DNA of 64,000 nt from contig NC_087250.1 in NCBI RefSeq assembly GCF_037042905.1, forward strand, positions 10,108,001 through 10,172,000, given 5' to 3'. A model generated the notes under the pieces. That model was not told the DNA's origin and did no database searches. It worked only from the letters and a program-made list of their open reading frames with translations. Positions 12,755 through 62,726 of this stretch are shown here, piece after piece. Position 1 is the stretch's first letter. The number at the start of each line of letters is the position of its first letter. This stretch comes from Lytechinus pictus. Taxonomy: Eukaryota. The position numbers and the translations under genes were made by a program.

Positions 12755-12838
12755 CTATGGAATGATATCGATAAAATGGAATATGATAAATACAGTAAAA
12801 TAATGATTGCAATAAAAGTTATTTACTACAGCACTTAA

Positions 12839-35229: not shown

Positions 35230-36938
35230 GGAAACGGTTCAGGTTGGAACGGGGTAGATCACGTTAGATTAGACCGAAAAATCAGTCTTTTTCTTTCAGT
35301 GGAAAAATACTTCTCCATAACCCCCTTCTTCTATTCTCTTTTTCTTCTTTTTTTCTTTTGGGTTGGAACTTGGTTGGATTCGAACCTCTCTCCACTCATA
35401 GTCATATATTCAATGATTGAATGAACAACTAAAGGTTGATTTTTCATTTAACCTTGTTCACTGTTACTCTACTAAACTTAAAGTACTATTCCCTGTGTGT
35501 CAAAATAATGTTGGCAATTTTTGGCTTATTTTCGGGGACAAATGCTTGATTTTTTTTACTGTCACGGTCATTTTCCATTGCAACTATTCATCATATTTTA
35601 CTTGGTTCTTAAGTAGGCCCTAAATTGAAGTCTTTTAATTATTTTTTCTGAATTAAAAATAGAGATTGAAAAATGAAAATTTTCTTGAAATTTTACTTTC
35701 CACCAAAAGAGGGCCTGCACAAAATGTGCTCAAAAATTCAAGTTGTTGAGCGCTCCAGTAAATACAACAGTGATCCCTCATTACAAATGTTTTATACTAT
35801 AGATTGCAACTGTATGGAAATTATTAGACAGGAATAACCGTCGTTTCTGGGGATTTAATCAACAATTTCTGACATTTTACTGTATTGGTGAGTGAGCCAA
35901 CGCAGTTCAGGGGAACAACCAAAATACAGAGACTGAAGCTTTTGGTCTAGACAGGAATAACCGTCGTTTCTTGGGATTTCCTTAACAATTTCTGACATTT
36001 CACTATAATCCCCATTCACTGACAGTGGTTCGTTAGTGTGAGCTCGCATGTGTTATCACGTTCACCTATTCGCCGACTAGTACTGTCCAGACTTCAATAA
36101 TTTGTTTTAATCGAATTTACAGTCTAAGGATTTAGAAACTACCTAAATAATGTCTTGAATATATAAAAAATAAGGACATATAAAAAAAAGAGATCAAAAG
36201 GTATGAAAATAGTACTTTACCGATGTTTACTTGTCTTGGTCTCGAGAATCACCCCCAAAATGGCAGCCAAATTAAGAGATATTTACGAACGGAGAGGGCA
36301 TCAACAATTTACGAATATGATATCGATATTGCTTTTGATATTATACGATCTGTTCCATATGCGAGCTAAACCGCTATGATCACAGGTAGCAGACGACATT
36401 CGATATATCGAGACATTGAAAAGTTAATAAGGATAATGACATCATTCAAGATGGCAACTTGCAAGAAAAACCGTCAGCTTAGGTGAAAATGTCTAACTCT
36501 TAGATGAAAGATTTCTCAATCATCCAGAGGAATTTTTTCAATAACTCTAGTCCAAGGTACGCAATTACTTGTAAGTTATTTATATTTCCCTGATAATGGA
36601 AACCATGAAACTGTAAATTTAGCTTAAAAACAGTTTTAAATCTCGACCTATAAAACGTTACTCGTTAGTTCACTTACATGTTGTCTATAGCCACGGGCCA
36701 ACAACTCTTCAGTCCATGTATTGGTGAGTGGAGCCAACGTAGTTCAGCGGAACAACCAAAATACAGAGACTGAAGCTTTTGGTCTAGGAAATTAGTAGTT
36801 TTGGTTACAAAAGTGACGTTTTAATGAATTTTTTAAATGTGTGTGCGATATAAATACTGCGGTCTTAATAGGTTATATTTTGGTAGTAGTACTAATAATA
36901 AGATTGAAATGTTTGTGGGGGTTCTATTTACCTTATAG

Positions 36939-36994
36939 ATTTCTGCCATTGAGTCCCTGTACAGATTGAGTTAGAACTTCGGTCTCTGTAATTG
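36939..36994 (+). other. Candidate 5'UTR exon of SLC37A4
   Basis: TTTACCTTATAG acceptor and G|GTGAGT donor; a related candidate lies at 36691-36723. Confidence 0.35.
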
Positions 36995-37885
36995 GTGAGT
37001 GGAGCCAACGGAGATCAGCGGAACAACTAATATAACAGAGACTGCAGCTCTTGGCCTAGTCAGGGATATGCTCTGCCATGTCCACTGATACTTTGTCTGG
37101 CTCCGCGCTGCGGCATACCCTCCGTCAATAATATTGATGGAGGGGATGCATGCCACGGAGCCAGAGGAAGTTTCAACTCTCAGCGCGCAGTGGAGCATAG
37201 GCTATCCGTGACAGAAATGGACTGATTTTGGAATTTGGGGTCTAATCTAACGTCAGATCTATTATTATGGACAGGAGCCCGTTTTTGAAAACCATGGAAA
37301 GTTAGTCTTAACTTAAAACGTTAATATCTTTATCCGCCAACCACGGACTAACTAAGCTCCAATTAGATGTCGATCAAGACCTACCGGAATGTAGGGTCTA
37401 GATCTAGATCTAAACTAGACGTCTATTTCTTTTTAAAAAAAAATGGAAATCAAATGTTAATGTGTCTCACCTCATTGGACCCTTTTCTTACATTTATCAG
37501 CCAACCTGGACAAGACTGAAAGATTCAGTCTCTGTTTGTCTGGTTGTTTCGCGGGGTCTGGACTACCTCCTTGAGCCGGCAGGGAGCCATGGACGTGGAC
37601 TGGTAGACCTACATGTAACATTAGATCTGCTGAGTTAGGAGTCGGACCACGTCCAGGCCAGGATAGAGTAAAAAAACTAGTTTTAAAATAAGTAACGGGC
37701 GGATTTCAGCTAGCTATCTAGTGCTGGTGTGGGATAATTTAACCTTAGCGTTATAAAAGGGATTGTATGTCTGATAGGGAGTGCTACATTTAGAAGAATC
37801 CATTATGATTTCCCCCTTTCTTTCAGATCAACTCACCATTTTCATCTCCTTGAATACTACTTGTCTTGGAGTTTGTTGCTCAGAT

Positions 37886-38033
37886 ATGGTGATGAATGTG
37901 TACACACAATGGCGCCTCATCAACGTCGGGACACTCTTCATTGGCTATGGTCTCTATGTCTTAAACAGAAAGAGTTTTGTCTTCCTTTTACCAGAAATAA
38001 TAAAAGAAGAAGGCCTCAAGAATAATGATCTTG
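37886..38033 (+). CDS. SLC37A4: Glucose-6-phosphate translocase (SLC37A4-like), coding exon 1
   Basis: MVMNVYTQWRLINVGTLFIGYGLYVLNRKSFVFLLPEIIKEEGLKNNDLG aligns with human GYSLYYFNRKTFSFVMP...DDLG; donor G|GTGAGT; upstream acceptor TTTCAG ending at 37826. Confidence 0.92.
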
Positions 38034-38785
38034 GTGAGTCATACTTTTTTTTCACCCCTGTCATTTGTTTTTAATCTATTTCTTTCCTCTGAAGTCATAT
38101 TATTTGCAACTTTATTTTCCTCCAACTAATTGTTATTTGTATTCTTCTTCTAATTTTTCTCTACTACACCCTCATTCTTACTCCTCATTGTCTTCTTTTT
38201 CTACTTCTTCTCCTTCCTCTTCTCCTCCTTTTCCTTATCTTTCTCTTCCTCTTCTCCTTTATACGCCTCTTCTTAATCTTCAACTTCTTTTTCTTCTTCA
38301 TCTCTTCCTCCTTTTTTTTTTGTTTCCCTTCAATCTTCTCCTTTATTTTACTTTTTAAACTCCAAGTAGAAGAAAACAACAATTGGAGGTCTGAAGAAAA
38401 TCCATCAAGAAACGCAGCTTACCTGTACACAACGTAGTATCATCTCCCCCTCCTCATTCTCTCTCCAATTCTACACCCCCCCTCTATCTCTCTTCAAATC
38501 GTTGACATTCCCTCTCTCCTCTCTCTTTCCAATGTCCACTTCCCCCCCCCCCCCCAGGATGACAGTTTTCAGCTTTTTAGCTGATTTATTGTTTTCTTAG
38601 CTTAATTTCAACTTTAGCTTACTTCTGTACAAAAGTACATGTAAGGGAGCTCTTTTAATTTCAGCTCTCTTTTCCCATCACTCGTCAGCTTTTTTTCAGC
38701 TTTTTATTGTTTTATTTGTGATCACTGTATTATCGCTCACCTCCCTGCTTCTTTCGTCCTCCCAATCTCCCCCTTCGATCTTCAG

Positions 38786-39018
38786 GTACCATTACAAGTA
38801 GTCTAACATTAGCCTACGCCATCAGCAAGTTTATCGGAGGGATTATCTCTGATCAGATCAGCCCTCGAGCGATGTTTCCGATGGGTCTCTTTGTCACCGG
38901 TGTTCTCTCGCTACAGTTCTCTGTCTCAACGTCGGTGGAAAGTTTCATCGTTATGTCGTTCCTGATGGGCCTTGCTCAGGGTGTGAGCTGGCCGGGAGTA
39001 GCCAAGGTCCTGAAACAG
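38786..39018 (+). CDS. SLC37A4: SLC37A4-like coding exon 2
   Basis: TITSSLTLAYAISKFIGGIISDQISPR...GLAQGVSWPGVAKVLKQ; TTCAG acceptor, CAG|GTAAGA donor. Confidence 0.95.
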
Positions 39019-40338
39019 GTAAGAGATTTTAAGGAGATCAATATTTCTTATTCTTATTCTTCCTCCTTTTTTCTATTCCTCTTCCTCTTCCACTTTCTAT
39101 TACTCTCTCTATTCCTGTTCCTCTTTCTATTCCTTTTTCCTCCTCCCCCTCCTTTCTCTTCCTCTTTCTCCTTATCCTTCTTCCTCTCCTTATTCTCTTT
39201 CCTCCTCTTCTCTTTTTCTTCTCCTCCTTGTTCTCCTTCTTGTTCTCCTCTGTCTTCCCCTTTACCTTCTCTGTCCCTTCTTCCTTATCTTCTTTTTATT
39301 TTATTGTACTTCTTCTTTCCCCTCCTTTCTGTTCCTTGGACCATTTCTCTGTCTCTGCGTGTTCTCTTTGCAACCAGTATCACTTCAGTTTTCTGTGTCA
39401 ACGTTTGTGGAAAGTTTCATCGAGATGTCGTTCCTGATGGGCCTTGCTCAGGGTGTGAGCTGGCCGGGAGTAGCCAAGGTCCTGAAACAGGTACATGTAA
39501 GAGATTTTAAGAAGATGATACTTCTCCTTCTTCATCCTCTTTCTATTCCTCTTCTTTCCCCTCCTCCTCCTACTTCTTTTTTTTCTCTTTTTTTCTTCTG
39601 TTTTATTTCTTTTCTTCTATTTCTTCTTTCCTTTCCCTTCTCTTCCTTTGTCTTTTCCTCTTCCTTCCTCCTCCTCATTTCTTCTTCCTCTTCTTTTCTA
39701 TTTCTTTCTTTTCTTCTACTTCTTCTTTCTCATCCTTTGTTTCTTTCTCTGTTCTGCATCTTCTCTTTTCCACCAGCATTCTCTCACTTCATTTATCTTT
39801 CTCAAGGTGGGCGGAAGTTTTATCCCTATGTCTTTTCTCATGGGCGTGAGCTAGCCCGGAGTAGCCAAGGCCTTGAAACAGGTAACAGAGTTCAAGGAGA
39901 TGATACTTCTTCCTCTTCTTCTTTGTCTTTTTCGTTGTCTTCTTATTTTTTTTCTCCTCCTCTTCTTTTTCTTCTTCCTCCTCTCTTCTATATCTTCTTA
40001 TCTTTTTTTTTTACACACACTATGTGTGTTAGAACTAGAAACTACCAAAGCAGTGTGTGACCAGTCACCCCCAAACCTTATCTGTGTTGCCAGTCATCAG
40101 TGTGATCATTTTTTTCAGCTTCCATTTCAGTATCATGAATTACAGGTACCAGTTCTAGATCCACAATAATACAGTCACAATTTAACCTTGTTTTTGCATA
40201 CTCTCTCTCGAAATCAGTGTTTAATGCAGTTACTCTCAATTATCTTTATATGTAATTCTTTTGTGATCGGTCACCAGTGAAGTTTTATTTAATTTGAAGT
40301 TATTCTAAGTGGTATTATATTGTGTCTGGATTCTTTAG

Positions 40339-40474
40339 TGGTATTTGCCATCGGAGATCGGTCTATGGTGGAGCCTGATATCATCTGCTGCTAATGTCGC
40401 AGGGACTCTAGGACCCCTCGGTCTGGCTCTACTTGCCATCAACTTTGGTTGGAGAGGTGCTATGCAGTTCTGTG
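40339..40474 (+). CDS. SLC37A4: SLC37A4-like coding exon 3
   Basis: WYLPSEIGLWWSLISSAANVAGTLGPLGLALLAINFGWRGAMQFC (human [26 protein letters not shown]); TTTAG acceptor, G|GTAAGT donor. Confidence 0.93.
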
Positions 40475-40489
40475 GTAAGTAAAGTCCTC

Positions 40490-40761
40490 GGCCCCCATCT
40501 TTATAGAAGTTACGATTGATCCAATCAACCACAACTATGGCAAGCCAGCAACATCATCTAAAATTCATGTTTGTTCAAAACATTTTCTAAATATGATGTA
40601 TATTCACTCATTCATCATTTTCATGAAAATTTAGTGCACACTTCTCTTTGTTTACAAAGGACATTGTGCCAATGTCCAGTAGAAAAAAATGATGACATTA
40701 ATGGATTTCCATACAGTTGAGATTGATCCGATCAATCGTAACTCTTTGTAAAACGGGACCC
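40490..40761. mobile_element. Harbinger-like MITE (other copies at about 56129-56396, 59443-59725, 59797-60069)
   Basis: TTACAAAGAGTTRCGATTGATCC-type inverted ends and a shared interior; CWG flanks in several copies. Confidence 0.8.
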
Positions 40762-41092
40762 TGGTCTCACTGACCAACGGGCACAAAACGTATTCATAAC
40801 GGATATAGCGGACATCCGCTCCAGACAATGGGCGAACAATGAAATCACAGTGGATGGATATAGAGCGTATGGAACACGTATGCAACGTGTACACAACAGA
40901 TACAATAACGTTTTCCAACAGATGGCAAGATTCTTTTTCGATTTACATCCTCTTTGCATCCATAAGTGCAGTGGGACCAAGCCTTAAAATCAACTTTGTA
41001 ATTAGGCCAAATAGTGATTTGATCTTCAAAAAAAAACCAAAAAAATTACAAACTTAGCTTTATGTAAAAGAGCAATTCTCCTTCTTTGTAAT

Positions 41093-41293
41093 TTCCTTCA
41101 GCAAGAAAGTTATCCACATTGTGCTGCACTCAACCCAGGTGAGGTGAATGGGTACAGGTAGGATTAATTCCTTGAATGCATGAGCACTGAAAGGCAGCAC
41201 AGGCTAAAGCTGGAGTAATGATAATATTAAATAGCACCTCGGAATAGAATATTTCTAGATAGATGGTGCTATGTAAATGCCTATTATTATTAT
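41093..41293 (+). mobile_element. 5'-truncated SINE copy
   Basis: Same core and (ATT)n tail as 7283-7590; further fragments at about 47440-47657 and 53452-53550 (minus strand). Confidence 0.75.
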
Positions 41294-42074
41294 ACCGTCA
41301 AAATTTGATGTTTTAAAGTTTGAGAAATGACAAGATACAAAAGTTTCTTCAACACCACTGCTTGGAAGTTTTCAGCCACCTTGAAATCATCAATGAGTTG
41401 CATGCGAAAGTTCTCTGTAATTGGGCCAAATAGGAAATTGATCTTCAAAAGAAAGTAACTTTGGTTAATGTTAACGAACGATTCTCCTACATACTGTCAA
41501 AATTTGACATTGTAAAGCCGAATAAAAGACAAGAAACGATAGTTTCTTTAACAACCATTTTTTGCAGGACTGCTTGGAAGTTTGACTAAGATTGCTTGAG
41601 TGAACCTGAACTTCAGTCCTTGTTTTCTCATTTTATTCAAGTGCTTGTTGAATTTCTCCTGCATTGAATGAAATACTAAAGTGGGTAATTGTTGATCAAT
41701 TTGATCATTTTAAATTTAGGATGTGTTTTCTTTTTAACTCAATGAAAATCTTAAAGGGTTAGGGTTTTCAATATGGTGTAACGTTAGGTTTAGGGTAGGG
41801 TACAGAGTTGCCAACCCTTACACAATATTAATGAGATGTGTTCTGATGTAAATTCAGTGTTTACTTCCCGATTGAATGACAGAGCGAAAAACTTTTGTTA
41901 TCCCGTTTTGTCTCGTAAGAAAACATTTGGTTCAGCCGTTTAGTTATTCACATTGTAATTTCTTATCTGACTAGTATTCCGTAACGGTTGGCATCTCTGA
42001 GTGTGTAGTATCAAACCTAGGGTTGTAGTTGGAATTTCTAGTGGAATCTATAGCAGTGCAAATTTTTTTTACAG

Positions 42075-42191
42075 CTGGGAGTGCTATTGTTGTCGCTGCG
42101 ACGGCTGGATTCATAATACGAAGCTCACCCACTGATGTCGGACAGCCATCTCTACATGCGAACAGTGAACAATCAAAGAATAATGATACAA
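42075..42191 (+). CDS. SLC37A4: SLC37A4-like coding exon 4
   Basis: GSAIVVAATAGFIIRSSPTDVGQPSLHANSEQSKNNDT (human IHNEPADVG); TTTTACAG acceptor, A|GTAAGT donor; 117 nt phase 1-1. Confidence 0.9.
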
Positions 42192-42779
42192 GTAAGTGAT
42201 GTAGGGTGGAGTCCCCAGATTTCCGGGATATGGAAATTCATTCAGAAATCACATAAACAGATAAAGCTCACATAGTCTCATGGAAAACATATGCCGATAG
42301 TATACATTTGAATTATGACCAATAAAGTGAAAATCATAAAAAGCAAAGCAATCAAGAAAACACACACAAAAAAAATTTACAATTGCTTTATTGTATGTTT
42401 TGTTCATGTCAACGTATATGACGATTAAAACACAAAAAACACAGAAAACACAGAAATTGCATTTCATGAAACAGAAAAACTTTTTTATTTAGGGTTATCT
42501 AGTCTTGCTGTTACTTTTTAATAATCAGCTATCTTCAATTTGAATTAATCTGGTCAGAGCGAGCCATAGTTGTTTTCATTGAATATTTTATTTTTTCCAG
42601 CAAAGTCGTCTGAATCATCAAGTATTTTTGAGAATCTTGTCAGAACGAGTCATAATTGGTTTCATTGAATATGCTATTAAATCCAACAGAAACATCTGAA
42701 TTATCAAGTATATTGGAGAAACTTGTCAGAGCAAACCTTTTTTTTTTGTTTATTTTTAAAAATATAATATCCTTTCCAG

Positions 42780-42950
42780 CAAAAACATCTGAATCAGCGA
42801 GTACTTTTGAGAATCTCAAGTCCATCCTAACAAGCCCAGCACTCTGGGTTATAGCTCTACTCTTCATGATCAGTAACTTTCTTGTTACCGGGATGACAGA
42901 CTGGGGCCAACTCTTCCTGATACAAGAGAAAGGTCTTAGTCATACAACAG
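42780..42950 (+). CDS. SLC37A4: SLC37A4-like coding exon 5
   Basis: KTSESASTFENLKSILTSPALWVIALLFMISNFLVTGMTDWGQLFLIQEKGLSHTT (human TDWGQFFLIQEKG); TTTCCAG acceptor, G|GTGAGA donor. Confidence 0.93.
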
Positions 42951-43002
42951 GTGAGAGATATGGTAAGATTGGTGTGAGAGGTAAGAATGGTGTGAGAGGT
43001 CA

Positions 43003-44287
43003 GACTGGGACCAGTTCTTCTTGATACAAGAGAAAGGTCTTAGTCATAGAACATTTGAGAGATAATGTAAGATTTTTGAGAGGGAAGACTGAAACCAATT
43101 CTTCTTGATACAAAAGAAGGGTCTTAGTCATACAACAGGTGAGAGATAGGGTAAGATTGGTGTGAGAGGTAGGACTGGGACCAGTTCCTCTAGATACATG
43201 AGAAAGGTCTTAGTGATGCAGCTGGTGAGAGATATGGCAAGATTGGTGTGAGAGGTAAGAATGATGTGAGAGGTAAGACTGGGACCTGGGCTCCGTTGCA
43301 TAAAAGTTACTATTTTGGTAACTTTGCCATCCAATGGTAACTGGTAACCAATGGTAATGCTGATCAACAGCCAATAGGAATCAAGGATTTCATGGAAGTT
43401 ACATGTGCCATTGCATGGCAAAGTAACCATAATGGTATACAAATAGCGAATAGGCATGAGTGCGATGGTGCGAGATTTTGCATAAGGTGAAAGAAAGATG
43501 CTCTATAGAGAGTCTCTTTCTTTCACCAAACGCCTTGGAATCTAGCAAAAATACAAAAAAAAACAGAGTTTTCCCCTGCAGTAATCTATGTAAAGGGAGC
43601 AAAAATATTGAAAGCGAAAAGAAAAATCCCACAAGCGTGCATGATCTTGGGCAGCATTGCGCTTTTAGCCAGCATACGCATATTGGTATTGCGCCTTTAT
43701 TTTTACTGAGCGCAATGAATTAAATCGTATTGTGACGTCACTTCCTAAAGCCGTGCAACAGTACATTTTGGACGGTACATTTTGGATGGTACGTCGTGTG
43801 TTCAACGGTACAAATGTTTGACATTCAGTCTCCCATTTGCTAGCGTACAACAAGCTAAGTAGGCGTTGTACAATAACTTTTATGCAACAGGCCCAGTTCA
43901 TCTTGAAACAAGAGAAAGGTCTTAGCCATACAACAGGTGAGAGATAGGGTAGACTGGTGTGAGAGGTAAGACTGAGACCAGTTCTTCTTGATACAAGAAA
44001 AAAGTCTTAGTTATCCAACAGGTGGGAGATAGGGTAAGATTTGTGAGAGTTAGAGAGGGAAGACTGAAACTAATTCTTATTGATAAAAGAGAAAAGGTCC
44101 AACTCATACAACAGGTGAGAGATGGGGTAAGATTGGTGTGAGAGGTAGGACTGGGACCAATTTTTATTGATACAAGAGAAAGGTCTTAGTCATACAACAG
44201 GTGAGCGATAGGGTAAGATTAGTGTAAGAGAGGGTGCAGACTGAGTCAAATTCTTCATGGTACAAAAGAAAGGTCTTGGCCCTACCA
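43003..44287 (+). repeat. About 85-105-bp tandem array derived from the SLC37A4 exon 5 3' end and donor
   Basis: 8 extra copies of GACTGGGACCAGTTCTTCTTGATACAAGAGAAAGGTCTTAGTCATACAACAG|GTGAGAGATA... Confidence 0.92.
43288..43892. mobile_element. Harbinger-like MITE inserted in the exon-5 echo array
   Basis: GGGCTCCGTTGCATAAAAGTTA...TAACTTTTATGCAACAGGCC; splits one repeat unit at a CWG site; a relative lies at about 1073-1185. Confidence 0.8.
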
Positions 44288-44700
44288 TGGATAAACATAT
44301 TAGAGCCGTAGCAACTCATTACAAGCTTAGCATATTAAGGCCAATGCAGTCTCTGATGGTGAATCTGCATAGGCTTTATAATGTAACAGATATTTTCTCG
44401 TCTATCTGTTTCATAAATACTCAATTAATTTCCGTCCGTAGCTCTTTTCCCTCATATTTTCCCTGATGTTTTGGCAAAATATAAGCCCTTGTGGCAAAAT
44501 AAAGATCCGTCAGGGAACTGAAATGTTATATTAAACCTCTAGGAATTCAATGTCTGTATTGTGATTATGAGTAAGTTGCAGTGAAGCATGGATAATTCTT
44601 GGTTTTTGTTTATTTTTTATGGGCCACCCTGTATAACAAAAGGTCAAGAAGATACTTAGTATTAGACAGTAACTTTTGTTATGTTAACTTTGCATTGCAG

Positions 44701-44786
44701 GAAGCTCATTTACAAGTGCATATTCCCTTGGTGCTACCGTTGGCAGTATAACATCAGGATATATTACAGATAAACTTGTAGCAAAG
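44701..44786 (+). CDS. SLC37A4: SLC37A4-like coding exon 6
   Basis: GSSFTSAYSLGATVGSITSGYITDKLVAK (human [29 protein letters not shown]); TTGCAG acceptor, AAG|GTAAGT donor. Confidence 0.93.
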
Positions 44787-44856
44787 GTAAGTTATGCACT
44801 AAGTTCATTGACTATTGCATAATTCACTTGGTGCTCCTATAGAAAGTATAACATCT

Positions 44857-45076
44857 GGGGGATGTTTCACAAAGATTTAAGTATGACTTAGAGTTGCACT
44901 TAAATGCCGACGCATTCATGATGTGTAACGTGCAATCTTATTGATCAATATGCAGTAGTGCGTGCCCTCCTCGCATAATCTGACCAATGCTGTCATGCCT
45001 TTTATATTGCACGCAACTAGGCATTTAAGTGCGACTCTAAGTCATACTTAACTCTTTGTGGAAACCCCCCCCCCCC
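44857..45076. mobile_element. Palindromic MITE inserted in the exon-6 echo
   Basis: TTAAGTATGACTTAGAGT / ACTCTAAGTCATACTTAA inverted arms. Confidence 0.82.
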
Positions 45077-45589
45077 TTTATATATTGCAGATAAACTAGT
45101 AGCAAATGTAAGCTACAGCATCCCATGTCCATTTGGAAAACAGTTCTTCTCTCCTAGGTCCCATTTCATACATTTTTAATGACAAATGTATACTATTTAT
45201 AGCAAGTTTACTATCATTTAATAGCCATCAAATGGAATGATTTCATTCTCAGTGTAGGAATATAATACTTCTTCCACTTGCTTGAAAATCAGTTAGTTTT
45301 GTATAATATGCACATGTTGTATACTTTGATTATAATGTGTTGGCTTCCAGCAAGTAGGGATTTAGGTTTAATTTTAATGATTATTTTTTGTTATTTCTAA
45401 TATTAAAAGAGTACAGCGTAGGCTATCCAATGATGCAAAAAATCTTTAAAAATTTCAAGTCAAACTCAAATATCAGCAAATTAAAAAGGGCAAAATTAAA
45501 AAAATACAATATCTTTAAAAATTTCCCTTAGTCTCTCCTTGAGGGAAGCAGGCGAATTATGAACTATTATATTTTATTGATATGAACAG

Positions 45590-45703
45590 TATGGTCGGAG
45601 GCGGAGAGGAACATCACGGTATCCATGGTTACTGCTAATGGTTGCATTGAATCTTTTATCACTCCATGCCCTGAGAAATTACATCGCTCCAGAAACTTAC
45701 CAG
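45590..45703 (+). CDS. SLC37A4: SLC37A4-like coding exon 7
   Basis: YGRRRRGTSRYPWLLLMVALNLLSLHALRNYIAPETYQ; AACAG acceptor, CAG|GTAAAT donor; 114 nt phase 0-0. Confidence 0.88.
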
Positions 45704-46507
45704 GTAAATTTTGAATGACTTACGCTGAATACAAGTAATGTATAATTGTATGCAATTATTTTGAGAGAAAGGCTTTAAAATAATGATTAATTGTTGCCAG
45801 ACCCCCAGAGATACAGATATAGGAAATTCTGATAAAGTTAACTTCAACTAAATTTTGAAACCATTATTTAAAATGTATTAAAAAGAAAATTTAAAGAATA
45901 AGATCAATTTTCATAAAACCTGGAGAGTTGATAAAAATTAAGAATGATAGAGTACCATTTAAATGTTGGGAGCATTGATGCCATAGAATTCCTCAAGTTG
46001 GCAATAACTACTCTGTGGAATCGATTTCCTCATCGCATTCATAATATTTGAAATGTTTCAAAACTGCTCTCAAAACCCAGATGTTCAAAATTGCCTTCCA
46101 TTTCGTAGTATCCCTTATTTATCATTATTGTTTTTCTTTTATTCTTTGTAACTTTCCTGTACATGGAATATTCTCCTTTCCTTTACATCTTGAGTATGTG
46201 GTCCATGCGGATTGGCAATTTAAAGATACTCTACACTATCATTATTATTGAAAAAAATGATAATGATATTATTAGTATTGTTATTATTCTTGTAATTGTT
46301 ATCATTTATAATTACTACAATTATTATTATTGTTAGTAGTAGTAGTAGTAGTAGAAGTAGTAGTAATACTATTTTATTATCTTTTTTTATTAGGAGCTTC
46401 TATTGGTTAGTCTCTGCTTAGGTAATCCTAATCCATGTGGATTTGGTGCTTTAAAAATACTCTGCATTATTATTATCAGTATTATCATTGTTATGACTCT
46501 CCTTTAG

Positions 46508-46646
46508 GAGCTTATACTACTGATTGGTCTATGCCTAGGTGTTGCCCAGAAGAGCTGTGTGGCATTGTTTGGCATCCTCGCTGTGGAGAACTCTCCCATT
46601 CATTTATCAGGGACAGTGCATGCCTTCGCTGCTTTGGCTTCAAGCG
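46508..46646 (+). CDS. SLC37A4: SLC37A4-like coding exon 8
   Basis: ELILLIGLCLGVAQKSCVALFGILAVENSPIHLSGTVHAFAALASS (human [29 protein letters not shown]); TTTAG acceptor, G|GTGAGT donor. Confidence 0.93.
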
Positions 46647-48218
46647 GTGAGTTGGGACAGTGGCTTCTGACCCCAATTTTTTTTCTCTTTCACATGCGTT
46701 ACGATCATTATCTGATTAATTGGTCTGTGTTTTTATTATGGTGTCATATGCTACAGGCTACAAGTTTTGTGTTTGCGTTATTTACAATCATATTACGACT
46801 TCTTGTGTCCAGCATTGTACAATGGGTGATTTCAAGTTCGGTGTTAGTGTTGGTGTTAGAAGCTGATTTTGATTGCGTTTCCTAGCTCCAAAACCTATTC
46901 TGAGTTAGAACAAATAATGCAGATCACAATATTGACAGCTCAACACCAAGTGAGTGACTTTTCAGGACCATCTTCGTTTTATGTTCGTCGTTTTACTCAT
47001 GTGAAAATTGACCTAACACCAACACCAAGAAGTCAACACTGAACTTGAAATCACCAAATATCCCTGCACAGATTGCACAATATCCCTGCACAGATTGTAG
47101 GGTGCCCTTTTGCTGATTGTATTATGCCTTTACATTGTACAGTTTCTCTGTGCCGATAGTACGATGATTCTTTGTTCATTGTACAATAACTATTCTTCCG
47201 CTTTGTCCGACAAGAGTCACATAAGCAGACTGCCAATTTCGACTCAAGTCACAATCTATTCACAATACACACAGAGTGCATTAAGACGATTGTTCATACA
47301 CACATACACATTGGTGATGTGCGCATCACATTGTACTATGTACACACCAAGCCTTTCTTTACAATAAACTAGTTAAAACCTATTACGAACTGAATTAGCA
47401 TAGTCCTTGCAAAACCCCTCTTCCGGTTGCACCTTGAAATTAATAATAATAATAATAGCTGGATTTATAAATTGCTTTTTGCCTGAGGATACAAAGCGCT
47501 GCTATTATTACCCCGGCTTTAGCTCGAGCTACCATCACCGGCACTCGGTGCATGCAAGGAATTACTCCTGCCGGGTACCCATTCACCTCACCTGGGTCGA
47601 GTGCAGCACATTGTGGATAAATTTCTTGCTGAAAGAAAACACGCCATGGCTGGGATTGTGTGGCGCAGGAGTGATTCTCTCTGTGGCAGACAAAGGGATT
47701 AGGGGTACGATTTTAGAAAATGGTCAAGAAATAACAAAGTTTGGTCTCTTTGAAGGAATTTTTGTCTTTCCATAATTCTATTAAACAAATCTGTTTTCAC
47801 AATTTCCTTCCTGTAGCTTTCGCACAGTTTACAAAAGACTTAATGCATGGCTGGTTAAGTAAAATAGAGCTTTCAGTAGGTGCGACAGCTAGCTTTTAAA
47901 GCATCTTTATTTTATAAAAACTATTGAAATTCAATTTTTAGGAATCCAAATTGTTTTTAGTCACTCAAGCATGAACAAGGAATATTGTATACTAGGTTTA
48001 AGAAGGGATTCTACGCTTTACAATGACATAATTTGTCTGATTGAGTTATGATAAAAATCATCAATAAATTTATGTTTTGTTTTGTTTTTTCTGGGATGCA
48101 CTGAACAGTTCCTGCATTCTTACCCAAGGTGTGGCATTTTTATTATGTAATCTTGGAATTTACTTGTATATGCCATTTTAATACAATATATGCCCTCTCT
48201 CTCTGTCCCTCTCTGTAG

Positions 48219-48376
48219 TGGGTGGTGTATTAGCTGGGCTTCCTCTGACCTACATCTCACAGCATTATTCCTGGTCACACGCTCTCTACTGCATGGAATC
48301 GGTCTCATTTATCAGCCTTTATCACCATGCTCCTTATACGCAGGATGAACATGAGAATTGGCTACCAGTCTCCTAA
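48219..48376 (+). CDS. SLC37A4: SLC37A4-like terminal coding exon 9 (stop at 48376 as assembled; 48389 if one T near 48318-48320 is removed)
   Basis: VGGVLAGLPLTYISQHYSWSHALYCMESVSFISL (human [20 protein letters not shown]); CTGTAG acceptor; apparent +1 frameshift near the end. Confidence 0.88.
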
Positions 48377-48435
48377 AAAATCAGACTAAATTGGAACCCG
48401 CAAGGTCTCTATATGGTTACAATGGCATTGTTATT

Positions 48436-49325
48436 CATGGAGTGAAGCACATTCTCAGCCTTATCATAATGCTCCTTATACACAGGATGAACCTGAGAAT
48501 CGGTTACCAGTCTCCTAAAAAAGCAGACTGAGTTCAAACTCACACGGTTTATACATCATTCTTCATGGAGTGAGCTGATTTTTTTAGCTTTTTCTTAATA
48601 CTTACAATAAGCAGGAGGAACATGAGAATTGGTTACCAATCTCCTAAAAAAAAGCAGGCTGAGTTCAAACTCACAGGGTTTATACATCATTAATCATTCT
48701 TCATAGAGTGAGCTGATTTTTTTATCCTTTTATTAAATGCTGACAATATGCAGTATGAACATGAGAATTGGTTACCAATCTACTAAAAATTCAGACTGAA
48801 TTGGGACACATAACGTTTATATATGGACACAAATTTTTGATGGAGTGAAATCCTTTTCTCGGCCTTGTCATCATGCTCCTTATACGCAGGATGAACATGA
48901 GAATTGGCTACCAGTCTCCTAAAAAATCAGAGTAAATTGGAGCCTGCAAGGTCCCTCTATATGGTTACAATGGCATTGTTATTCGTGGAGTGAAATCCCA
49001 TTTCTCAGCATTATCATCATGCTCCTTGTACGCAGGATCAACATGAGAATTGGTTACCAGTTTCCTAAAAAACAGAGTTCAAACTCACAGGGTTTATACA
49101 TGTACATCAATAATCATTCTTCATGGAGTGAGCTGATTTTTTTAGCTTTTTCTTAATGCTTACAATAAGCAGGATGAACATGAGAATTGGTGACCAATCT
49201 ACGAAAAATTCAGACTGAATTGGGACACATTACATTTATACATGGTTACATATTATTCATGGAGTGAAGTCCATATCTCAACCTTATCAACTGCTTAAAA
49301 TATGCAGGTTGAATGTGAGAACAGA
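48436..49325 (+). repeat. About 130-145-bp tandem array derived from the SLC37A4 last codons and stop
   Basis: 7 extra copies of ...GCAGGATGAACATGAGAATTGGYTACCARTCTCCTAAAAAA.CAGACT... Confidence 0.92.
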
Positions 49326-52300
49326 TGTAAGGTCCACAGTAGAAGCGCTCAAAGAAAACGAGCGATATACAGATGATGAAGATGAATGAAGAAACTAGAA
49401 GTAGTAAGTTGTGGATCCAAAAGTATAATTATGTAGCACAGTAAATTGATCGCTACAGCAGAAAATAAAGCCTCCCATATGAAGTCCTTCTACTGAGTGT
49501 CCTACCTCTAAAACTGTGGCAATGTGTTCCATAAAAACTATTTCATTGGTTGGTCAATAGTTGCTATGCAATGAAAACAAGCATCAAAGGGGAACAAAGA
49601 ATAAAAATTATTTTAAGTTTGAGGTTTTCACAGTTCATAGAAATTTATAGTATTTGTTAGTTTGAGGAGGCCGAGGGCTGAATCACTTTTTATTATACAA
49701 TGTGCTTCCAATATAGAATCAAGTGCCTTGTTAATTCTAATTATGGGCTTGAAGTGCCAAAACATTAACAAAAGAAGTTAGTTCCTCATTCTATCTTTTT
49801 ATTTATTAATTTATTCATGTGCATGTATTTGCTTTTGTTATAATATGTGATCCATTCATTCAAGTATTCCAATTTTTTAGGGGTTTCTTATTCATTTATT
49901 TTTTATTAATTTAATTTTTTTTTGGGGGGGTAACCATTCATTTGAATTTTAAGAAAGTGTTGCTTTTTTATAACTTTTTTTCATCATGTAATTCACTTTT
50001 GTAAAACTTAAATTTATTCATTATTTCTCTTTCTATATTTATATATTTTACAACTGATAATTTTTTTGTTGGTGCTCCCTGCTTATTCCTGTGGAAAAAA
50101 AATGTTTCTTTTGACCCTACTCAGTGGAGTAGCGAATCATGATGGTGCAATAATTACATATTTGATCAATTTATTTTTTAAATAAAATGAAATAATGAAC
50201 TAGATAGTGTACTACTTGTTTTACGACTGTTTTATTATGTGAAAGCGGTCATCTGTGTGATTCTGCAAAATAATTTGATATTTCATCATGTTATTTTTAA
50301 TGATATACAAGAATGTGGACAGACTAGCTAAAAAAAAATATAAAAGGTGTGTGCGTATGTGTGAAAAAAAAGAGCAAGAGAATGTGCGTGTGTCATGGGT
50401 TTGTGTCTAAGCCCCTCCAAGTGTGTGTGTATGACAGAACACTATCCAACCGGGGACATTTTGTAAAATATGGACAAACTCATTTTCTATCATTGTCCCT
50501 GGTTTCAGTTAAATTGTCATTCACATATACACAAATATCCCCCATATGTTGAAGCATTTTATGTCTATTGCTGACAACAAAAACGTATGTGTGCCTGTGT
50601 GTGTTATAAAGAGGGGATGACGATTGGTAAGTATATATATTTATGTTACCGTGAAAGAGAGGAGTATGGGGGGTCACACTGTTTGGTCCAAGTTTCACAA
50701 AGATGCTAATATTTTTACATATCATAAAGGCCTTTGTGCATCATCTTGAACTTTAAAAGATAAACTTATAAATTTTCCCTTTCCATTCCTCTCTGTGCTC
50801 TAAGATCCTCATTAGAGCAGGATCTGTGCGTATTCTCTACACATCTAAACATTGCCCCCCCCCCCCTCCTTCTTGAAATTCTTTAACAAAGTGTTTTTTT
50901 AATTTAGGAAAAAAAGTTTTGGAGGGGAAAGATTCCCACCATTATTTCCATCTCAGTATCCCCCACTTCTCCCTCTCTTTCTCTTTCCCTCTCTTTTTCT
51001 TTCCTTCTCTTTCTCTTTCCCCCTCTCTCCCTATGTCCAACCATCACTTGAGTTAAGACTCACTCATTGGGTGGTATACTGATAATTAAAACCTAGGTAT
51101 TCAAATTCATTTATTTCCCATCTCTAAAAACAAAAAACTCTAGTCTCAACTAGAAATTTTAACCATGCTTCTATGAAATGCTGACATAATACATCTTCCA
51201 TATTTATGGTAATTATAATGTAAATGTACCAATTAATTCATTAATATTCATTATACTTCTTTTTTTATATTTTCCTATTCTTTCCCATTCACAACTCAAT
51301 GTTTTTGACAACTTTGTGCAACAGGATAATAATAATTGCTAAGTGATAAATAAGTTGACAACTGGCACTCCATAAAAGTGTGGTCTAAGGTAACCCTAGT
51401 AAACCATGGGTAGCGTATCAGAATATTAACCATTTGGTATAACTTTCATTAAGTCTGGTGCCCAAATGGTCTAATTTGGGCTTCGTGCCGTATGATTTTT
51501 AACTTTGTCAAATGAAAATTTGGTTTAAAAAAAATCACTAATCATCGGCATAATCAATTGGATACTCTGCATCTCTCACACTAATAGCACTTTAACCTTT
51601 ATGTTTTAAAGAAATAGGCAGCATAACAGAAACAGATTCGATAGGCTCAACATATGAAAGGACTTGAGACTTTATTTGTTGAATATGACAAGAATTATCA
51701 TTTTCAATGAATTGCATACTCAAATTAGTCAATGCCAAAATGGTTCTTCGAAACGAGAAAAAAATCAAAAGTCACATTGGCAAAGTGTAATATGTGCATA
51801 TTAATACATTCCTACTGTTAAAATTACACTGCTTGTTCACACTTTGTACACAAATGTACCACCTTTTTATTGCTCTTTTTTTCTATAAATTCGGACATTG
51901 TCTGCTATAGGGATATATTTCTTACCGGCTTAAAAAGAAAGCATACAGGTTTTAGAGATGTATAAAAACAGGATTTACCTTTGCAGGATATAGGTCTATG
52001 AAAAGACTTACCCAATACAAAAGAAAATACTAGTAGATAGAATATATATCTCATATTCTAAATAGGAGATTGACTTAACACATTTCTAAGCATTCATGCA
52101 AGGCAAAATAGTTTGTAACAAACTTGTTGAATATACTTTAAATAGCAGTTTTAGCTGAGCTACAATTGTAGCCATGTGCGAGAGCTGACCTGGATTTCAT
52201 CCATCTAATTATATTAAATATATCTTTTTGAAGCTAAATAAATACTGCACACTATAATCTATCATTAAATAATTTGGACATATACATGCATTCTTAATAC

Positions 52301-53916
52301 CAATATAATCACACGGGTACAGAAAAACGATGATTGAAAAAGAAACTACCAAAGCTCATCTACCGCTTAAGAATTTCACTACATAAAAAAGAACAGTTTA
52401 AGAAATAAATCCAACAGGCATAACTCTTCTAAAGTTGTCATGTATAATCAATAAGAAAATATATATTTGTTTCTCTCTCCTCGTGAAGCTACAAACGTTT
52501 CTACAAAATATTAGACAAACAAAATTATTGTCTGAAAACATGGTTTGATATTTTTAAAAAAGCATATTGATTTTACAATGACAAAACATTTGCATGATGC
52601 ATGCATCATCAAAGAGAAAAATGTCTTTGAAATCTGCCTTTTCTTCTTTATCTAACAAACACTGTTATTTTCAAATTTCACGAGTGTTATCCATTCAAAG
52701 TTAACAATAAAAGAAACAAGAATGCTGTTCATGATAATCATAATGAATTTTCAATGACGGATAATCTATCAGATTTCTCAATGGGCAGTATACTCAAACT
52801 CAGCCTTCTAAATATATTCCTGCTTTCACAAGTTTATAATCCTGATCACCGATATTATTATTATCATACACAAGATAAAATTACATAACTATAATTCACA
52901 TCATTATTAAACATCGTTTCATTATCTTTACTATTTACTTTATACCAACCTATTTCCTACATCCCACTGTCCTTATTTTACTAATTGAATTATTTACCCA
53001 TAATTCATTGCTGTCCAACATAAATTAAGACCTACAGAAAGCACCAATCTATTCTCATTATTTTGTTACAATTTAGCAAGAAAATACAAAATATTACATT
53101 ACTTATTCAAAACATACACATGTTACGAACCACTTCCCATTAGAACAAAGAAAGCAAAATATTACGTAACTCATTCAAAACATACACAAGTTATAAACCG
53201 TTTACCATAAAAAAAAACAAAGAAAAACGATTCTATATACGGAAGACTATTGAACACCGTCCACACTTGGTTTATAAGAAAACATAATTTCCCATCACCT
53301 GAAGGATATACTAATGTAAACAGATCCTTTTGAAGCATGGCACATGACCATGTTAGTAATATTCATACATGTATTTCTACAGAGAGATGCCAGTCTTTAG
53401 ATTTTCGCCTGAATTCAGACCCTGGCAATTTTCCAGGCTTTTCAGGCTTCATAGCACAATGTGGGTAAATTTCTTTCTGAATGAAAACATGCCATGGCTG
53501 GGAATCAAACCCATGACCCTCTGATTGAAAGGCAAGTGTCAGAACCACTACACCCCCACATTTTAGAGTTCAAGTCTGTAATGGGCATTGTTCGGCATCA
53601 GTAAGGGGATGTGTCAAAAATGCTGCTGAACGTTGTTGCACTATGTCTAAACACGCCATAAGAGAGCACTTATTTTTCGTTGACAAAAACAACACATATA
53701 AATACAAATGTATAAAAATTGAAAAATGTGTTCACATATTTTGTTCCTCCATTTACAAGCACATCTGTATGATTCTCAATTTTGAAATTGCATGAGCAAC
53801 TAATATCTTTCTAGAACTGTCTTGTAATTTTTTTTTTAAATGCAAAGCAGAAAAAACAGTAACATATACCAAATGCAAACTGTATAGGCATATGGGATCC
53901 AAACCCTAGCCAATAG

Positions 53917-54275
53917 ATGATTTGTTCAAGTGCTGCAATGGAAAATATATGTATATGTATAAAATGTCATGTTTTATCAGCCATCCTATTCATCACTCAA
54001 ATAATCAGAGTAAATCAGTAAAAGGATAAATAATGATATAATTAAGAATTTTGGCTAAAAACAGTATTTGCATTGGATTTGTAAACTAATACATTTTTTG
54101 AGCAAGATTTGTTCAAGTGCTGCAATGGAAAATATATGTATATGTATAAAATGTCATGTTTTATCAGCCATCCCTTTCATCACTCAAATAATCAGAGTAA
54201 ATCAGTAAAAGGAAAAATAATGATACATTCATGAATTTTGGCTCAGAACAGTATTTGCATTGGATTTGTAAACAA
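53917..54275. repeat. About 190-bp tandem duplication in the probable vinculin 3'UTR
   Basis: GATTTGTTCAAGTGCTGCAATGGAAAATATATG... occurs at about 53918 and 54106. Confidence 0.9.
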
Positions 54276-54498
54276 ATTAAGTTTGGCTGAATCAGCCCCC
54301 CCCCCCTCCTCCCAGTCTTATTAGGGTTAAGACTTGCATCTGAATGCAACTCTTTCTGCAAAGGGCCCCATATTGATCTATCTAAGTGGAGTAATGCTTG
54401 ATACAAGATTTTTAAGTCTCTTGAGCAACTAATGCTGCCATCGGCACTGTGAGATTTGCAGCAATGGCTTCTTCTTGGGAGAACCTAGCTGCACCTTG

Positions 54499-54648
54499 GG
54501 ACCGTTTCACGAAAGTTGTCAACACTGACAAGTTGACTTTTTTCTACAATTACTAAAGTAACAGTCAGAGGCCAGTGCATCTCAACCAATCAAAACAAAG
54601 GATTTCACTGATATTGTCAGCACTGATAACTTTCATGAAACTCATCCC
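54499..54648. mobile_element. Short Harbinger-like MITE (relatives at about 58457-58563 and 63155-63321)
   Basis: GTTTCACGAAAGTTGTCA...TGATAACTTTCATGAAAC inverted ends. Confidence 0.65.
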
Positions 54649-55385
54649 AGGTCTTTGAAGATCTTCTAACCATCTCATCCTCTGAGGAATTTGACTTAGG
54701 GGTGGGATATCACACAAGATTTTACATAGCACTGGGGCGAATTCAATTTATGGAAGGTAGATGCAAGATGCCTTACAGAACATTGACGTACCTTGTAAAA
54801 GTCGGAGCCGCGTCTTTTGCGCTGGACTCCTGCAAGCACAATTTCATTACCAATTCTCACACTTCACCATAGAAAACACAATAGAGAATGCAAAAAAGCC
54901 ACTATGAAAAGATGCATTCTGCCTTCAGAGAAGGATGCTTGATAAAAGACGCGGCATGGACTTTTGGCAAGGTACCTACATGTAACATTAAAGAACATTA
55001 CAGCAGAGCCTTTTCTAGGATGGACCTACTGACTGGTAGCAAGGTCTTTCACGGACCCACTTCATTTTCCAGGAACTTCGAATTAGGAGAGGGACATAAC
55101 ACAAGCTTTTACACAATCTGATCTTAATATTGCTTTGACTTGCACGAAATCAATTTAAGGAAGGTCAACATAAGGTATCTTTCAGAACATTAAAGCAGTG
55201 GCATCTTCTTGGATGGACCAACTGGTACCAAGGTCGTTGACGAACCCATCTTATCTTCGGAAAAAGTTTACTAAGGAGATGCATTTAAACTGAATATGGC
55301 TTCGACTTGGGCGAAATCAATTTATGAAAGGTCGAGACAAGGTGCCTTAGAGAACATCAAAGCAGTGGCATCTTCCTGGGTGGAC

Positions 55386-55552
55386 CTACTGGTACCAAGG
55401 TCTTTGGCGGACCCATCTCATCTTGTAGCCTGCATCCGTTCTGATCTTGATGGAGGCAGCTTTGGCGGCTCTGACTGTTTCCTTGACGGCTTTCATCAGG
55501 TTTTGGGCATTGCCGACCAGCATCTCTGTGGCTTCCATGTCCTCCTCGGATT
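55386..55552 (-). CDS. VCL: Vinculin terminal coding exon
   Basis: [55 protein letters not shown]; the PWYQ C-terminus is diagnostic of vinculin rather than alpha-catenin. Confidence 0.96.
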
Positions 55553-56429: not shown

Positions 56430-56520
56430 CTTGTGATCCAAGCATGACAGCTTTGACTGTTGATAAGATCTTGAGCTGTGTACTGATGGTAGGGATCCGC
56501 TCACAGACTTGAAGAAGGTT
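56430..56520 (-). CDS. VCL: Vinculin penultimate exon
   Basis: NLLQVCERIPTISTQLKILSTVKAVMLGSQ is near-identical to the vinculin tail; CTGTAG acceptor, G|GTAGGA donor. Confidence 0.96.
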
Positions 56521-62602: not shown

Positions 62603-62726
62603 GTTTTTCATGCGTTTATCAGTACACTGAGCTGCGATTTCTCCGGCAAGCCTGACGACTTCCAGCGACGCCAGAGCGATCTTCTTAGCGATCTCGATTA
62701 ATTCTTTCTTTGACGTTTTCTCACCG
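62603..62726 (-). CDS. VCL: Vinculin tail domain exon (third from last)
   Basis: GEKTSKKELIEIAKKIALASLEVVRLAGEIAAQCTDKRMKN matches vinculin [28 protein letters not shown]; CTAG acceptor, AAC|GTGAGC donor; the gene continues beyond the right edge. Confidence 0.92.

Follow-up and report, generated by a model that had tools for sequence, protein, structure and literature searches.

Tandem echoes of exon ends in the SLC37A4 gene and at the vinculin 3' end of Lytechinus pictus, probable neutral scars of local duplication

Segments straddling the ends of exons are duplicated in tandem, several times over, in the SLC37A4 gene of Lytechinus pictus, and once more at the 3' end of vinculin. Both genes lie in the window analyzed here (the whole stretch of 64,000 nucleotides), whose proteins have their best matches in L. 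pictus. The degenerate copies, called exon echoes below, are probably old, locus-specific short tandem duplications, the product of an ordinary duplication process filtered by selection, and would thus form a neutral scar that is unusually dense at this locus. Exon-end tandem arrays are an already known kind of neutral DNA scar, with precedents in human F7 and in a potato gene.

In the window, SLC37A4 was mapped as nine GT-AG coding exons by tblastn with the L. pictus protein P0001:

37886..38033, plus strand, coding exon 1 (100% identity to P0001, GT donor, junction scores of 20 and 20, no echo)
38786..39018, plus strand, exon 2 (source of an array: its 3' half, from about 38886, and its donor)
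40339..40474, plus strand, exon 3 (no echo)
42075..42191, plus strand, exon 4 (no echo)
42780..42950, plus strand, exon 5 (flanked by arrays on either side)
44701..44786, plus strand, exon 6
45590..45703, plus strand, exon 7 (no echo)
46508..46646, plus strand, exon 8
48219..48389, plus strand, exon 9 including the stop (an extra T near 48320 creates a frameshift in this assembly)

The resulting model of 433 amino acids shares 394 identical residues with P0001 and 351 with the S. purpuratus protein P0002. On the evidence of its similarity, which extends over the full length of the annotated SLC37A4 (glucose-6-phosphate exchanger) of related urchins, the gene is identified as SLC37A4. The tail of the model is lost to the 1-nt frameshift in exon 9: compared with P0001, P0002 and the echo copies, the extra T puts the last 68 nt before the stop out of frame, and it is likely an assembly-type error. 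P0001 and P0002 contain each duplicated segment once, and the nine-exon model uses edge copies only.

To detect echoes, each junction segment was aligned locally with its surroundings, and the units were aligned with MAFFT. In SLC37A4 this yielded:

39363..39532, plus strand, exon 2 echo 1 (local alignment, 83.5% identity; ACAG|GTA kept; CT-rich simple sequence follows)
39762..39922, plus strand, exon 2 echo 2 (local alignment, 74.3% identity; 12-nt deletion and in-frame stop; GT donor kept)
42547..42725, plus strand, exon 5 acceptor and start, two echoes (86-bp period; units 42547-42632 and 42633-42725; AG retained in both)
42996..43286, plus strand, echoes 1-3 of the exon 5 end and donor (period about 86-104; local alignment, MAFFT)
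43885..44290, plus strand, echoes 4-8 of the exon 5 end and donor (echo 8 truncated; local alignment, MAFFT)
44801..45115, plus strand, echo of nearly the whole of exon 6 with its donor (pieces 44801-44858 and 45076-45115; unit about 100 bp; interrupted by a hairpin)
46390..46423, plus strand, exon 8 acceptor plus the first 33 nt of the exon, weak echo (37-column alignment, score 34)
48440..49340, plus strand, exon 9 end with its stop, echoed seven times (repeat period about 143; placed by local alignment between 48452 and 49340)

The echoes described in the initial annotation are real, and local alignment recovered its counts for exon 2 (two), the exon 5 start (two), the exon 5 end (eight) and exon 9 (seven). 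With the exon copy included, the exon 2 array comprises three units of the 3' half and donor; ACAG|GTA is found at the real site (39015) and at both echo positions. The eight echoes of the exon 5 end lie between 43001 and 44285 at 80-89% identity and make nine units with the exon copy. The real site (42948) reads CAG|GTRRG, as do five of the eight, and a sixth retains a GT donor. The proposal that duplication seeds decoy splice signals holds for both donor arrays. On the other side of exon 5, the local alignments span 42582-42637 and 42682-42723, and the real acceptor is the last, downstream copy. Both flanks of this exon were duplicated independently, with the same 86-bp period. Exon 6 has a single echo, as had been described, which proved larger than described (57 of 68 aligned bases identical, insert left out). 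The echo claimed for exon 8 was found again, and none of 1000 shuffles reached its score; it is weak, however, since 16% of random genomic 91-mers of the window do equally well against their own upstream 760 bp. In the exon 9 array, which is probably in the 3'UTR, copies 1, 2 and 3 resemble copies 5, 6 and 7 (88, 79 and 89%), a pattern suggesting that a block of about 550 bp was duplicated in a second round.

Echoes are 72-90% identical to one another, with differences of 10-30% between copies, and they have picked up stops, frameshifts and inserted elements. Within the exon 5 donor array, exon-to-echo identity (83%) exceeds echo-to-echo identity (79%), as expected if the exon copy was held constant. 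The initial annotation had stressed that the intact exon stands at the edge of each array. This is no finding in itself, because the remainder of the exon adjoins the edge copy alone; the same geometry follows from any tolerated duplication, and the edge copy of exon 9 is in fact frameshifted.

The seventh array lies in vinculin:

55389..55552, minus strand, vinculin last coding exon including the stop (Pfam PF01044, E 4e-21; tblastn with P0029)
54731..55257, minus strand, echoes of the last vinculin codons and stop, in the vinculin 3'UTR (55163-55257, 84%; 54988-55068, 76%; partial third, 54731-54783)

About three echoes had been announced here, and local alignment gave two full copies and the partial third. 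Local alignment at the junctions found no echo at the other two vinculin exons, nor at the four SLC16/MCT14-like exons, for which none had been claimed. By gene, exon ends with an echo amount to 6 of 18 in SLC37A4, 0 of 8 in SLC16 and 1 of 6 in vinculin. A Pfam scan covered 271 of the 297 stop-to-stop frames of at least 55 aa, the 26 on SLC37A4 exons or echoes being left out; outside SLC37A4 it recovered only an MCT-like exon and the three vinculin exons, and so no more control genes. Besides the echo-bearing exons, the window contains ten exons free of echoes.

The coding echo units have no copy elsewhere in the window and the arrays share no sequence with one another, in keeping with the independent origin that had been proposed for them. 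In the DNA runs of a relative, array bins have a single-copy-like depth (23-111), compared with 10^4-10^5 in transposon bins; judged within the window and by this depth, the coding units are not dispersed in many genomic copies. Each echo adjoins its own parent exon in the same orientation. Recurrent local duplication in these gene bodies, as first suggested, is thus supported by repeated, independent events with unrelated, locus-specific units. Two arrays were later invaded by other elements:

43295..43888, unstranded, inserted element that divides the exon 5 donor array (perfect terminal inverted repeats of 15 nt; high-copy in DNA runs)
44857-45071, hairpin element inside the exon 6 echo (52-nt arms at 44857-44908 and 45020-45071)

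Both inserts have many copies elsewhere, as mobile elements do, and parts of the first recur once more near 1.1 kb of the window. MITE insertions had been announced in several arrays; inverted-repeat insertions are indeed present, in two. A 541-nt contig from a relative diverged by ~8% contains the exon 5 start array in the same arrangement and spans 42456-42947 with 39 differences and 15 gap letters. This sharing and the later insertions in two arrays indicate that the duplications are old. Local direct repeats make up 15.1% of the whole window, so that tandem duplication is generally common here. A degenerate pattern for the exon 5 end had no match in metagenome contigs. The literature on sea urchin tandem duplication and Lytechinus pictus assemblies, as judged from search listings, did not contain the pattern.

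These features can be accommodated by a simple scheme. In the founding event, a segment starting on one side of the boundary between coding sequence and an intron or 3'UTR and ending on the other would be duplicated, giving units of about 86 to 470 bp. The messenger would be unaffected as long as the copy still joined to the remainder of the exon stayed in use, which for a donor or a stop is the first and for an acceptor the last; the spare copies, sitting in the intron or 3'UTR, would then decay. Two copies could grow into minisatellite-like arrays by unequal exchange or replication slippage, a step suggested by the higher-order structure of the exon 9 array. Four factors would account for most of the apparent tie to exon ends: duplications lying wholly within exons would be lost to selection, introns are short relative to unit length, the exon copy would decay more slowly and keep pairs recognizable for longer, and the window was chosen for the pattern. 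By analogy with human F7 intron 7, the decoy donors are probably silent because the most upstream donor is chosen.

The minisatellite of human F7 intron 7 is the closest precedent. It is a 37-bp VNTR whose first unit spans the exon-intron boundary, with near-identical pseudo-donors in a row behind the authentic one; its pseudo-sites are silent and its copy number is polymorphic (Borensztajn et al. 2006, PMC1557585). The exon 5 and exon 2 donor arrays are built alike: head-to-tail, with a boundary-spanning first unit and an authentic donor followed by a run of donor-like pseudo-sites. The urchin units differ in being longer (86-470 bp versus 37 bp) and far more decayed, and the urchin gene has several unrelated arrays, including acceptor-side and stop-codon versions. 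A potato gene with the same architecture is already known, and the duplication associated there with intron gain is an event of the type that formed the exon 5 acceptor array (PMC4974935). In intron gain by tandem duplication (the Rogers model) both copies are partly exonic and a new intron is born between them. In the urchin gene, by contrast, the edge copy alone is exonic and the intron count is unchanged.

Gao and Lynch, in PNAS in 2009, are said to have described internal gene duplications covering partial exons as common in eukaryotes, with breakpoints in exons and introns, and reportedly laid emphasis on new coding sequence and new introns. Unlike those duplications, the urchin arrays created no new intron or coding repeat, and the spare copies were absorbed into introns or the 3'UTR. 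Tandem exon duplication leading to mutually exclusive exons was reportedly treated by Kondrashov and Koonin in 2001 and by Letunic et al. in 2002. It resembles the present case in that exon sequence is copied locally beside its parent. It involves an entire exon, open in frame and flanked by its two splice sites, whereas the urchin echoes are partial, with stops and frameshifts, lack one splice site (the acceptor, in the exon 6 echo) and cannot serve as alternative exons. A reading of the echoes as alternative exons was rejected, as they are partial and closed by stops.

Some observations run counter to this preferred scheme. The echoes are concentrated in one gene, SLC37A4, which a uniform process does not predict. 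The arrays detected in that gene also keep to exon ends: the four strong and two weaker non-transposon arrays all touch one, and no purely intronic array was detected. This second observation would fit an urchin germline mutational process of the kind proposed in the initial annotation, duplicating preferentially at exon ends and perhaps tied to transcription, to nucleosome or polymerase pausing at exons, or to break repair. We consider such a process unlikely, and marginally more so in the specific form of a sea urchin germline duplication preferring exon-end-straddling segments in certain transcribed genes. In a random-seed model, the probability that all SLC37A4 arrays touch exon ends ranged from 8e-5 to 0.05, depending on assumptions. 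When echo and transposon/satellite arrays were removed from the controls, a local copy (score 50) was found at 6 of 32 junctions versus 33 of 841 controls (3.9%; p 0.002), an enrichment of about five-fold; against unfiltered controls (195 of 1125, 17%) the same 6 of 32 gave p 0.49. The comparison of junctions with controls, which the initial annotation had named as a refuting test, is thus ambiguous: it favors the proposed link after filtering and shows no enrichment before it. The small p-values carry little weight, because a very large scan had singled out the window for this very pattern. The independent strikes on both sides of exon 5 also speak for a bias. However, the exon 9 and vinculin arrays, two of the seven, span a stop codon inside a terminal exon, without a splice site, where the DNA is distinct only by its coding content; this excludes a process linked to splicing as the cause shared by all. 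Moreover, the junction has no fixed place in the unit, the exon share varying from about 20 to 60%, and the ten other exons of the window are without echo. A link of the duplications to exon ends is not established.

It is more doubtful still that the arrays were kept by selection, with decoy donors aiding upstream exon definition or recruiting U1, or with regulatory units in the 3'UTR. The donors retained in six of eight exon 5 echoes (five as CAG|GTRRG) and in both exon 2 echoes, the persistence of the exon 5 start array in the diverged relative and the presence of the 3' arrays in transcript-like contigs would agree with a function. However, GT in six of the seven full-length exon 5 echoes is close to the expectation at about 17% neutral divergence (roughly 0.69), the units differ in length, some being cut short or broken up by elements, and echo-to-echo identity is only 72-90%.

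It is very improbable that the assembly created the arrays, whether by falsely expanding repeats or by stacking haplotypes. The extra T in exon 9 is one likely error of this type, and the exon 2 and exon 5 donor arrays had no explicit spanning contig among the longest pieces listed. Stacked haplotypes, however, would not differ by 10-30% with indels and separate element insertions. Furthermore, independent contigs match parts of two arrays: those of the transcript-like set X1 are identical to the window at 48570-48901 and 49128-50067 (exon 9 array), and a 3775-nt X1 contig covers 54598-55554 with 4 differences (vinculin array). The relative, too, has the exon 5 start array. X1 contig depth was low in the intron bins that contain echoes (4.5 in 39120-39783) and full in the 3' array bins (55-60).

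A capture of exon fragments by mobile elements, which would have scattered them as echo units, is hardly credible: there are transposon-like elements inside two arrays and a high-copy dispersed motif upstream, but the coding units have no other copy in the window, their depth is single-copy-like, and every echo stands beside its own parent in the same orientation. The motif is the following:

35880..37068, plus strand, ~80-nt motif containing GGTGAGTG, three copies, part of a high-copy dispersed repeat

Its copies are at 35880-35959, 36717-36787 and 36977-37068, with an inverted partial copy at 37513-37552. It had been taken for the donor of a putative 5'UTR exon. DNA-run depth in the region is 2-3 x 10^5 (position 35911) versus 20-110 in single-copy bins, which rules out an exon and identifies a dispersed repeat.

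If the arrays result only from selection-filtered duplication, the reading we prefer, the locus would be a clear natural example of exon-end duplicates absorbed into introns and 3'UTRs. It would also be an urchin counterpart to human F7 for the study of how the spliceosome ignores good decoy donors, of which the exon 5 array offers five to six. If exon ends were truly favored, an unrecognized mutational bias would bear on splice-site movement and exon birth. Decoy splice sites and stop-proximal repeats would then be seeded far above chance, as material for splice-site shifts and new exon ends.

In one raw RNA run, depth over SLC37A4 was only 0-2 and no SLC37A4 junction was among the joints listed; the reads came mostly from transposon families. 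Finally, the public L. pictus protein model P0001 runs past the exon 6 donor into echo sequence, which should serve as a warning for annotation.

In a protein search, the exon 2 translation matched SLC37A4-like proteins of two urchins, Lytechinus pictus (at 97% identity) and Strongylocentrotus purpuratus. On the minus strand, a 416-aa frame matched the monocarboxylate transporter 14-like proteins of L. pictus and L. variegatus at 99% and 91% identity, respectively. These matches indicate that the window is Lytechinus DNA, nearest to L. pictus. SLC37A4 comprises nine coding exons on the plus strand, with GT-AG introns throughout. All four exons of the SLC16-like gene mapped at 99.7-100% identity where truly aligned.

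Exons in the window. SLC37A4 exons were modelled by tblastn and splice-site inspection.
37886-38033, plus strand, SLC37A4 exon 1
38786-39018, plus strand, SLC37A4 exon 2
40339-40474, plus strand, SLC37A4 exon 3
42075-42191, plus strand, SLC37A4 exon 4
42780-42950, plus strand, SLC37A4 exon 5
44701-44786, plus strand, SLC37A4 exon 6
45590-45703, plus strand, SLC37A4 exon 7
46508-46646, plus strand, SLC37A4 exon 8
48219-48389, plus strand, SLC37A4 exon 9
62603-62728, minus strand, vinculin exon
56431-56520, minus strand, vinculin exon
55389-55552, minus strand, vinculin last coding exon, with the stop
19787-19984, minus strand, SLC16-like exon
about 19106-19253, minus strand, SLC16-like exon
16975-17934, minus strand, SLC16-like exon
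12612-12755, minus strand, SLC16-like exon

The initial annotation had described degenerate adjacent copies (echoes) of half-exons with their splice site or stop codon. The arrays that it named were detected by Tandem Repeats Finder, self-BLAST and an ungapped offset scan alike. Echoes were counted by aligning each junction segment with its neighbourhood, by unit-versus-unit alignment and by protein-level search. The reported numbers were recovered for the exon 2 3' half and donor (2 echoes, 83.5% and 74.3% identity) and the exon 5 end and donor (8 echoes, 80-89% identity), and by alignment for the exon 5 acceptor and start (2) and the exon 9 end and stop (7). For the vinculin last codons and stop, about three echoes had been proposed; two were found, the third copy being only partial. 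The single exon 6 echo is present, but it covers nearly the whole exon rather than its 3' part. It starts at 44801, directly after the donor region, is interrupted by a hairpin element with 52-nt arms and resumes at 45076; with this element excluded, it agrees with the exon at 57 of 68 aligned bases. The proposed exon 8 acceptor echo is weak: none of 1000 shuffles reached its 37-column match (score 34), but 16% of random 91-mers from the window, each compared with its own upstream flank, did equally well.

As previously described, the arrays are mutually unrelated, and they also share no sequence with the rest of the window. Inverted-repeat elements were later acquired by two of them. No echo was detected at any of the four SLC16 exons, in agreement with the initial annotation, or at the two vinculin exons other than the last. 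Altogether, the echo density is unusual, with six unrelated arrays within a single gene of 10.5 kb, distributed over donor, acceptor and stop sides, and one more in its convergent neighbour.

Stacked haplotypes are ruled out by the 10-30% difference between copies, each of which has its own indels and inserted elements. Moreover, the region 42456-42947 is covered, with 15 gap letters, by a 541-nt DNA contig of a relative about 8% different. This contig includes both echoes of the exon 5 start array, so the array is older than the split. In X1, a sequencing run with transcript-like contigs, the regions 48570-48901 and 49128-50067 were matched with zero differences. A 3775-nt X1 contig followed 54598-55554 with four differences and departed from the window at the vinculin acceptor, as expected of a spliced messenger. 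X1 depth was about 55-60 across the exon 9 array and on to roughly 50.4 kb, versus about 4 in intron-only bins. This is contig depth and not a junction count, but it fits stop-codon echoes lying within 3'UTRs and intronic echoes being spliced out. X1 transcript-like contigs also span 51720-53505 and 54184-55554 (minus strand), with 50408-51071 uncovered. They suggest a vinculin 3'UTR of nearly 4 kb (51720-55552, minus strand), the end of which would be separated from the convergent SLC37A4 transcript end by only about 1-1.5 kb.

Every array would have been seeded by a segment with one coding and one non-coding end. In donor-side and stop-codon arrays the first copy alone is contiguous with the remaining exon, and in acceptor-side arrays the last copy alone. 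Since only this edge copy is joined to the remaining exon, the intact exon at the array edge, noted initially, is dictated by geometry and is uninformative on mechanism. Decay is evident in the spare copies, which contain stops, frameshifts and deletions. In the exon 5 donor array, mean exon-to-echo identity (83%) exceeds echo-to-echo identity (79%), as expected if selection holds the exon copy constant. The exon 9 array has a higher order: its copies 1-3 are similar to copies 5-7, respectively (88, 79 and 89%), and blocks match at a spacing of about 550 bp. This points to growth through a second block duplication or unequal exchange.

In this assembly the exon 9 copy is itself disrupted, by an extra T near 48320 (within 48315-48325; CTT T ATC versus CTT ATC in the echoes, which lack it). 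The resulting frameshift exchanges the conserved last 22 residues, with their KKxx end, for 18 unrelated ones. The conserved tail (...ITMLLIRRMNMRIGYQSPKKxx) is present in P0001, the public L. pictus SLC37A4 protein model, and in P0002, the S. purpuratus protein; the window also encodes it, out of frame. The extra T may reflect either a homopolymer error in the assembly or a frameshift allele. P0001 also extends 11 residues (VSYAQSSLTIA) beyond the exon 6 donor, at 44787-44822, and so enters the first part of the exon 6 echo, where the window reads VSYALSSLTIA and then a stop. It is without the first 15 residues of exon 7, present in P0002. The exon 6 read-through reflects either use of an alternative donor or an annotation misled by the echo.

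Local direct repeats occupy 15.1% of the window, 24.3% of the span reported to hold echoes (35880-55430) and 30.4% of the gene. Equal duplication density at exon junctions and elsewhere had been named as the result that would speak against a link to exon ends. Density was compared using 100-mers centred on all 32 exon ends, a local-copy score threshold of 50, and non-exon positions as controls. The outcome was split. A local copy was found at 6 of the 32 exon ends, versus 195/1125 unfiltered controls (p 0.49), 132/1039 after removal of echo arrays (p 0.22) and 33/841 after removal of echo and transposon/satellite arrays (p 0.002); significance is thus reached only with full filtering. Selective filtering, short introns, slowly decaying exon copies and post hoc choice together form a simpler account, and probably the correct one. 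A duplication process biased toward exon ends is suggested by the fully filtered comparison and by the fact that, counted by events, all non-transposon arrays within SLC37A4 touch an exon end. With units placed randomly in the echo-free gene, this had a probability of 8e-5 for six events in an 8.4-kb gene, and of 0.05 for four strong events in a 6.1-kb gene with junction detectability doubled. However, the window was singled out for this pattern within a very large scan, and these probabilities, like the p values above, are uncorrected for that choice. Moreover, two of the seven arrays lie at stop codons, without a splice site, the junction position within units is not fixed, and ten of the window's exons lack echoes. 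A bias toward exon ends is hinted at, not established.

Two further repeats lie close to exons. In the SLC16-like 3'UTR, 40 bp past the stop, a 47-bp direct repeat (12319-12365 and 12526-12572) has copies 207 bp apart that share 87% identity; it parallels the stop-codon echoes but is entirely non-coding. A two-copy tandem repeat in a vinculin intron (56551-56798, period about 123-126 bp, 70% identity) begins about 30 bp from the exon end, which it excludes.

The echoes do seed decoy splice sites, as had been proposed. CAG/GTRRG is kept in five exon 5 echoes and a GT donor in a sixth, ACAG/GTA in both exon 2 echoes, and AG in both exon 5 start echoes. Human F7 contains a 37-bp minisatellite whose first unit crosses the exon 7 boundary (PMC1557585), so that identical pseudo-donors follow the real one; these are functional yet silent, the most upstream site being chosen. 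The urchin donor arrays share this layout, with the real donor first and pseudo-donors behind. Therefore our best guess is that the same rule applies, and that the decoy donors would be silent. Junction-spanning tandem duplications were reportedly included in the 2009 survey of internal gene duplication by Gao and Lynch. Such events are also known in the potato RdRp gene (PMC4974935) and in Drosophila intron gains (PMC2891723). The urchin case differs from the latter in having no new intron: intron gain and alternative-exon duplication are both ruled out, because the proteins contain each segment once. The kind of event is already known, and the unusual feature in the urchin is its density.

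The motif initially described as a 5'UTR exon donor echo occurs three times in direct orientation and once more as an inverted, partial copy. Depth in DNA runs at this site was 2-3 x 10^5, with about 70 contigs, versus 20-110 in single-copy bins, which rules out an exon donor echo and identifies a member of a dispersed repeat family. Two SLC37A4 introns also carry very high-copy repeats (40448-41775 and 46424-47751). A tRNA-like GGTTCGAATCC motif occurs in loose read ends at these sites, and read joints connect 41237 and 47503 in opposite orientation, suggesting inverted copies of a tRNA-derived SINE-like family. This family is strongly represented in RNA reads. Large arrays at 24537-26531 and 30610-31727, with 10-, 31-, 40- and 83-nt units and CCAGTTGG/AACTGG-type motifs, lie in opposite orientation about 4 kb apart and resemble the two arms of a single big element. 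Finally, a 309-bp satellite (21516-22752, 4 copies, 92% identity) has a unit partly resembling the 105-116-bp repeat at 14440-14731, which places both in a single dispersed repeat family.
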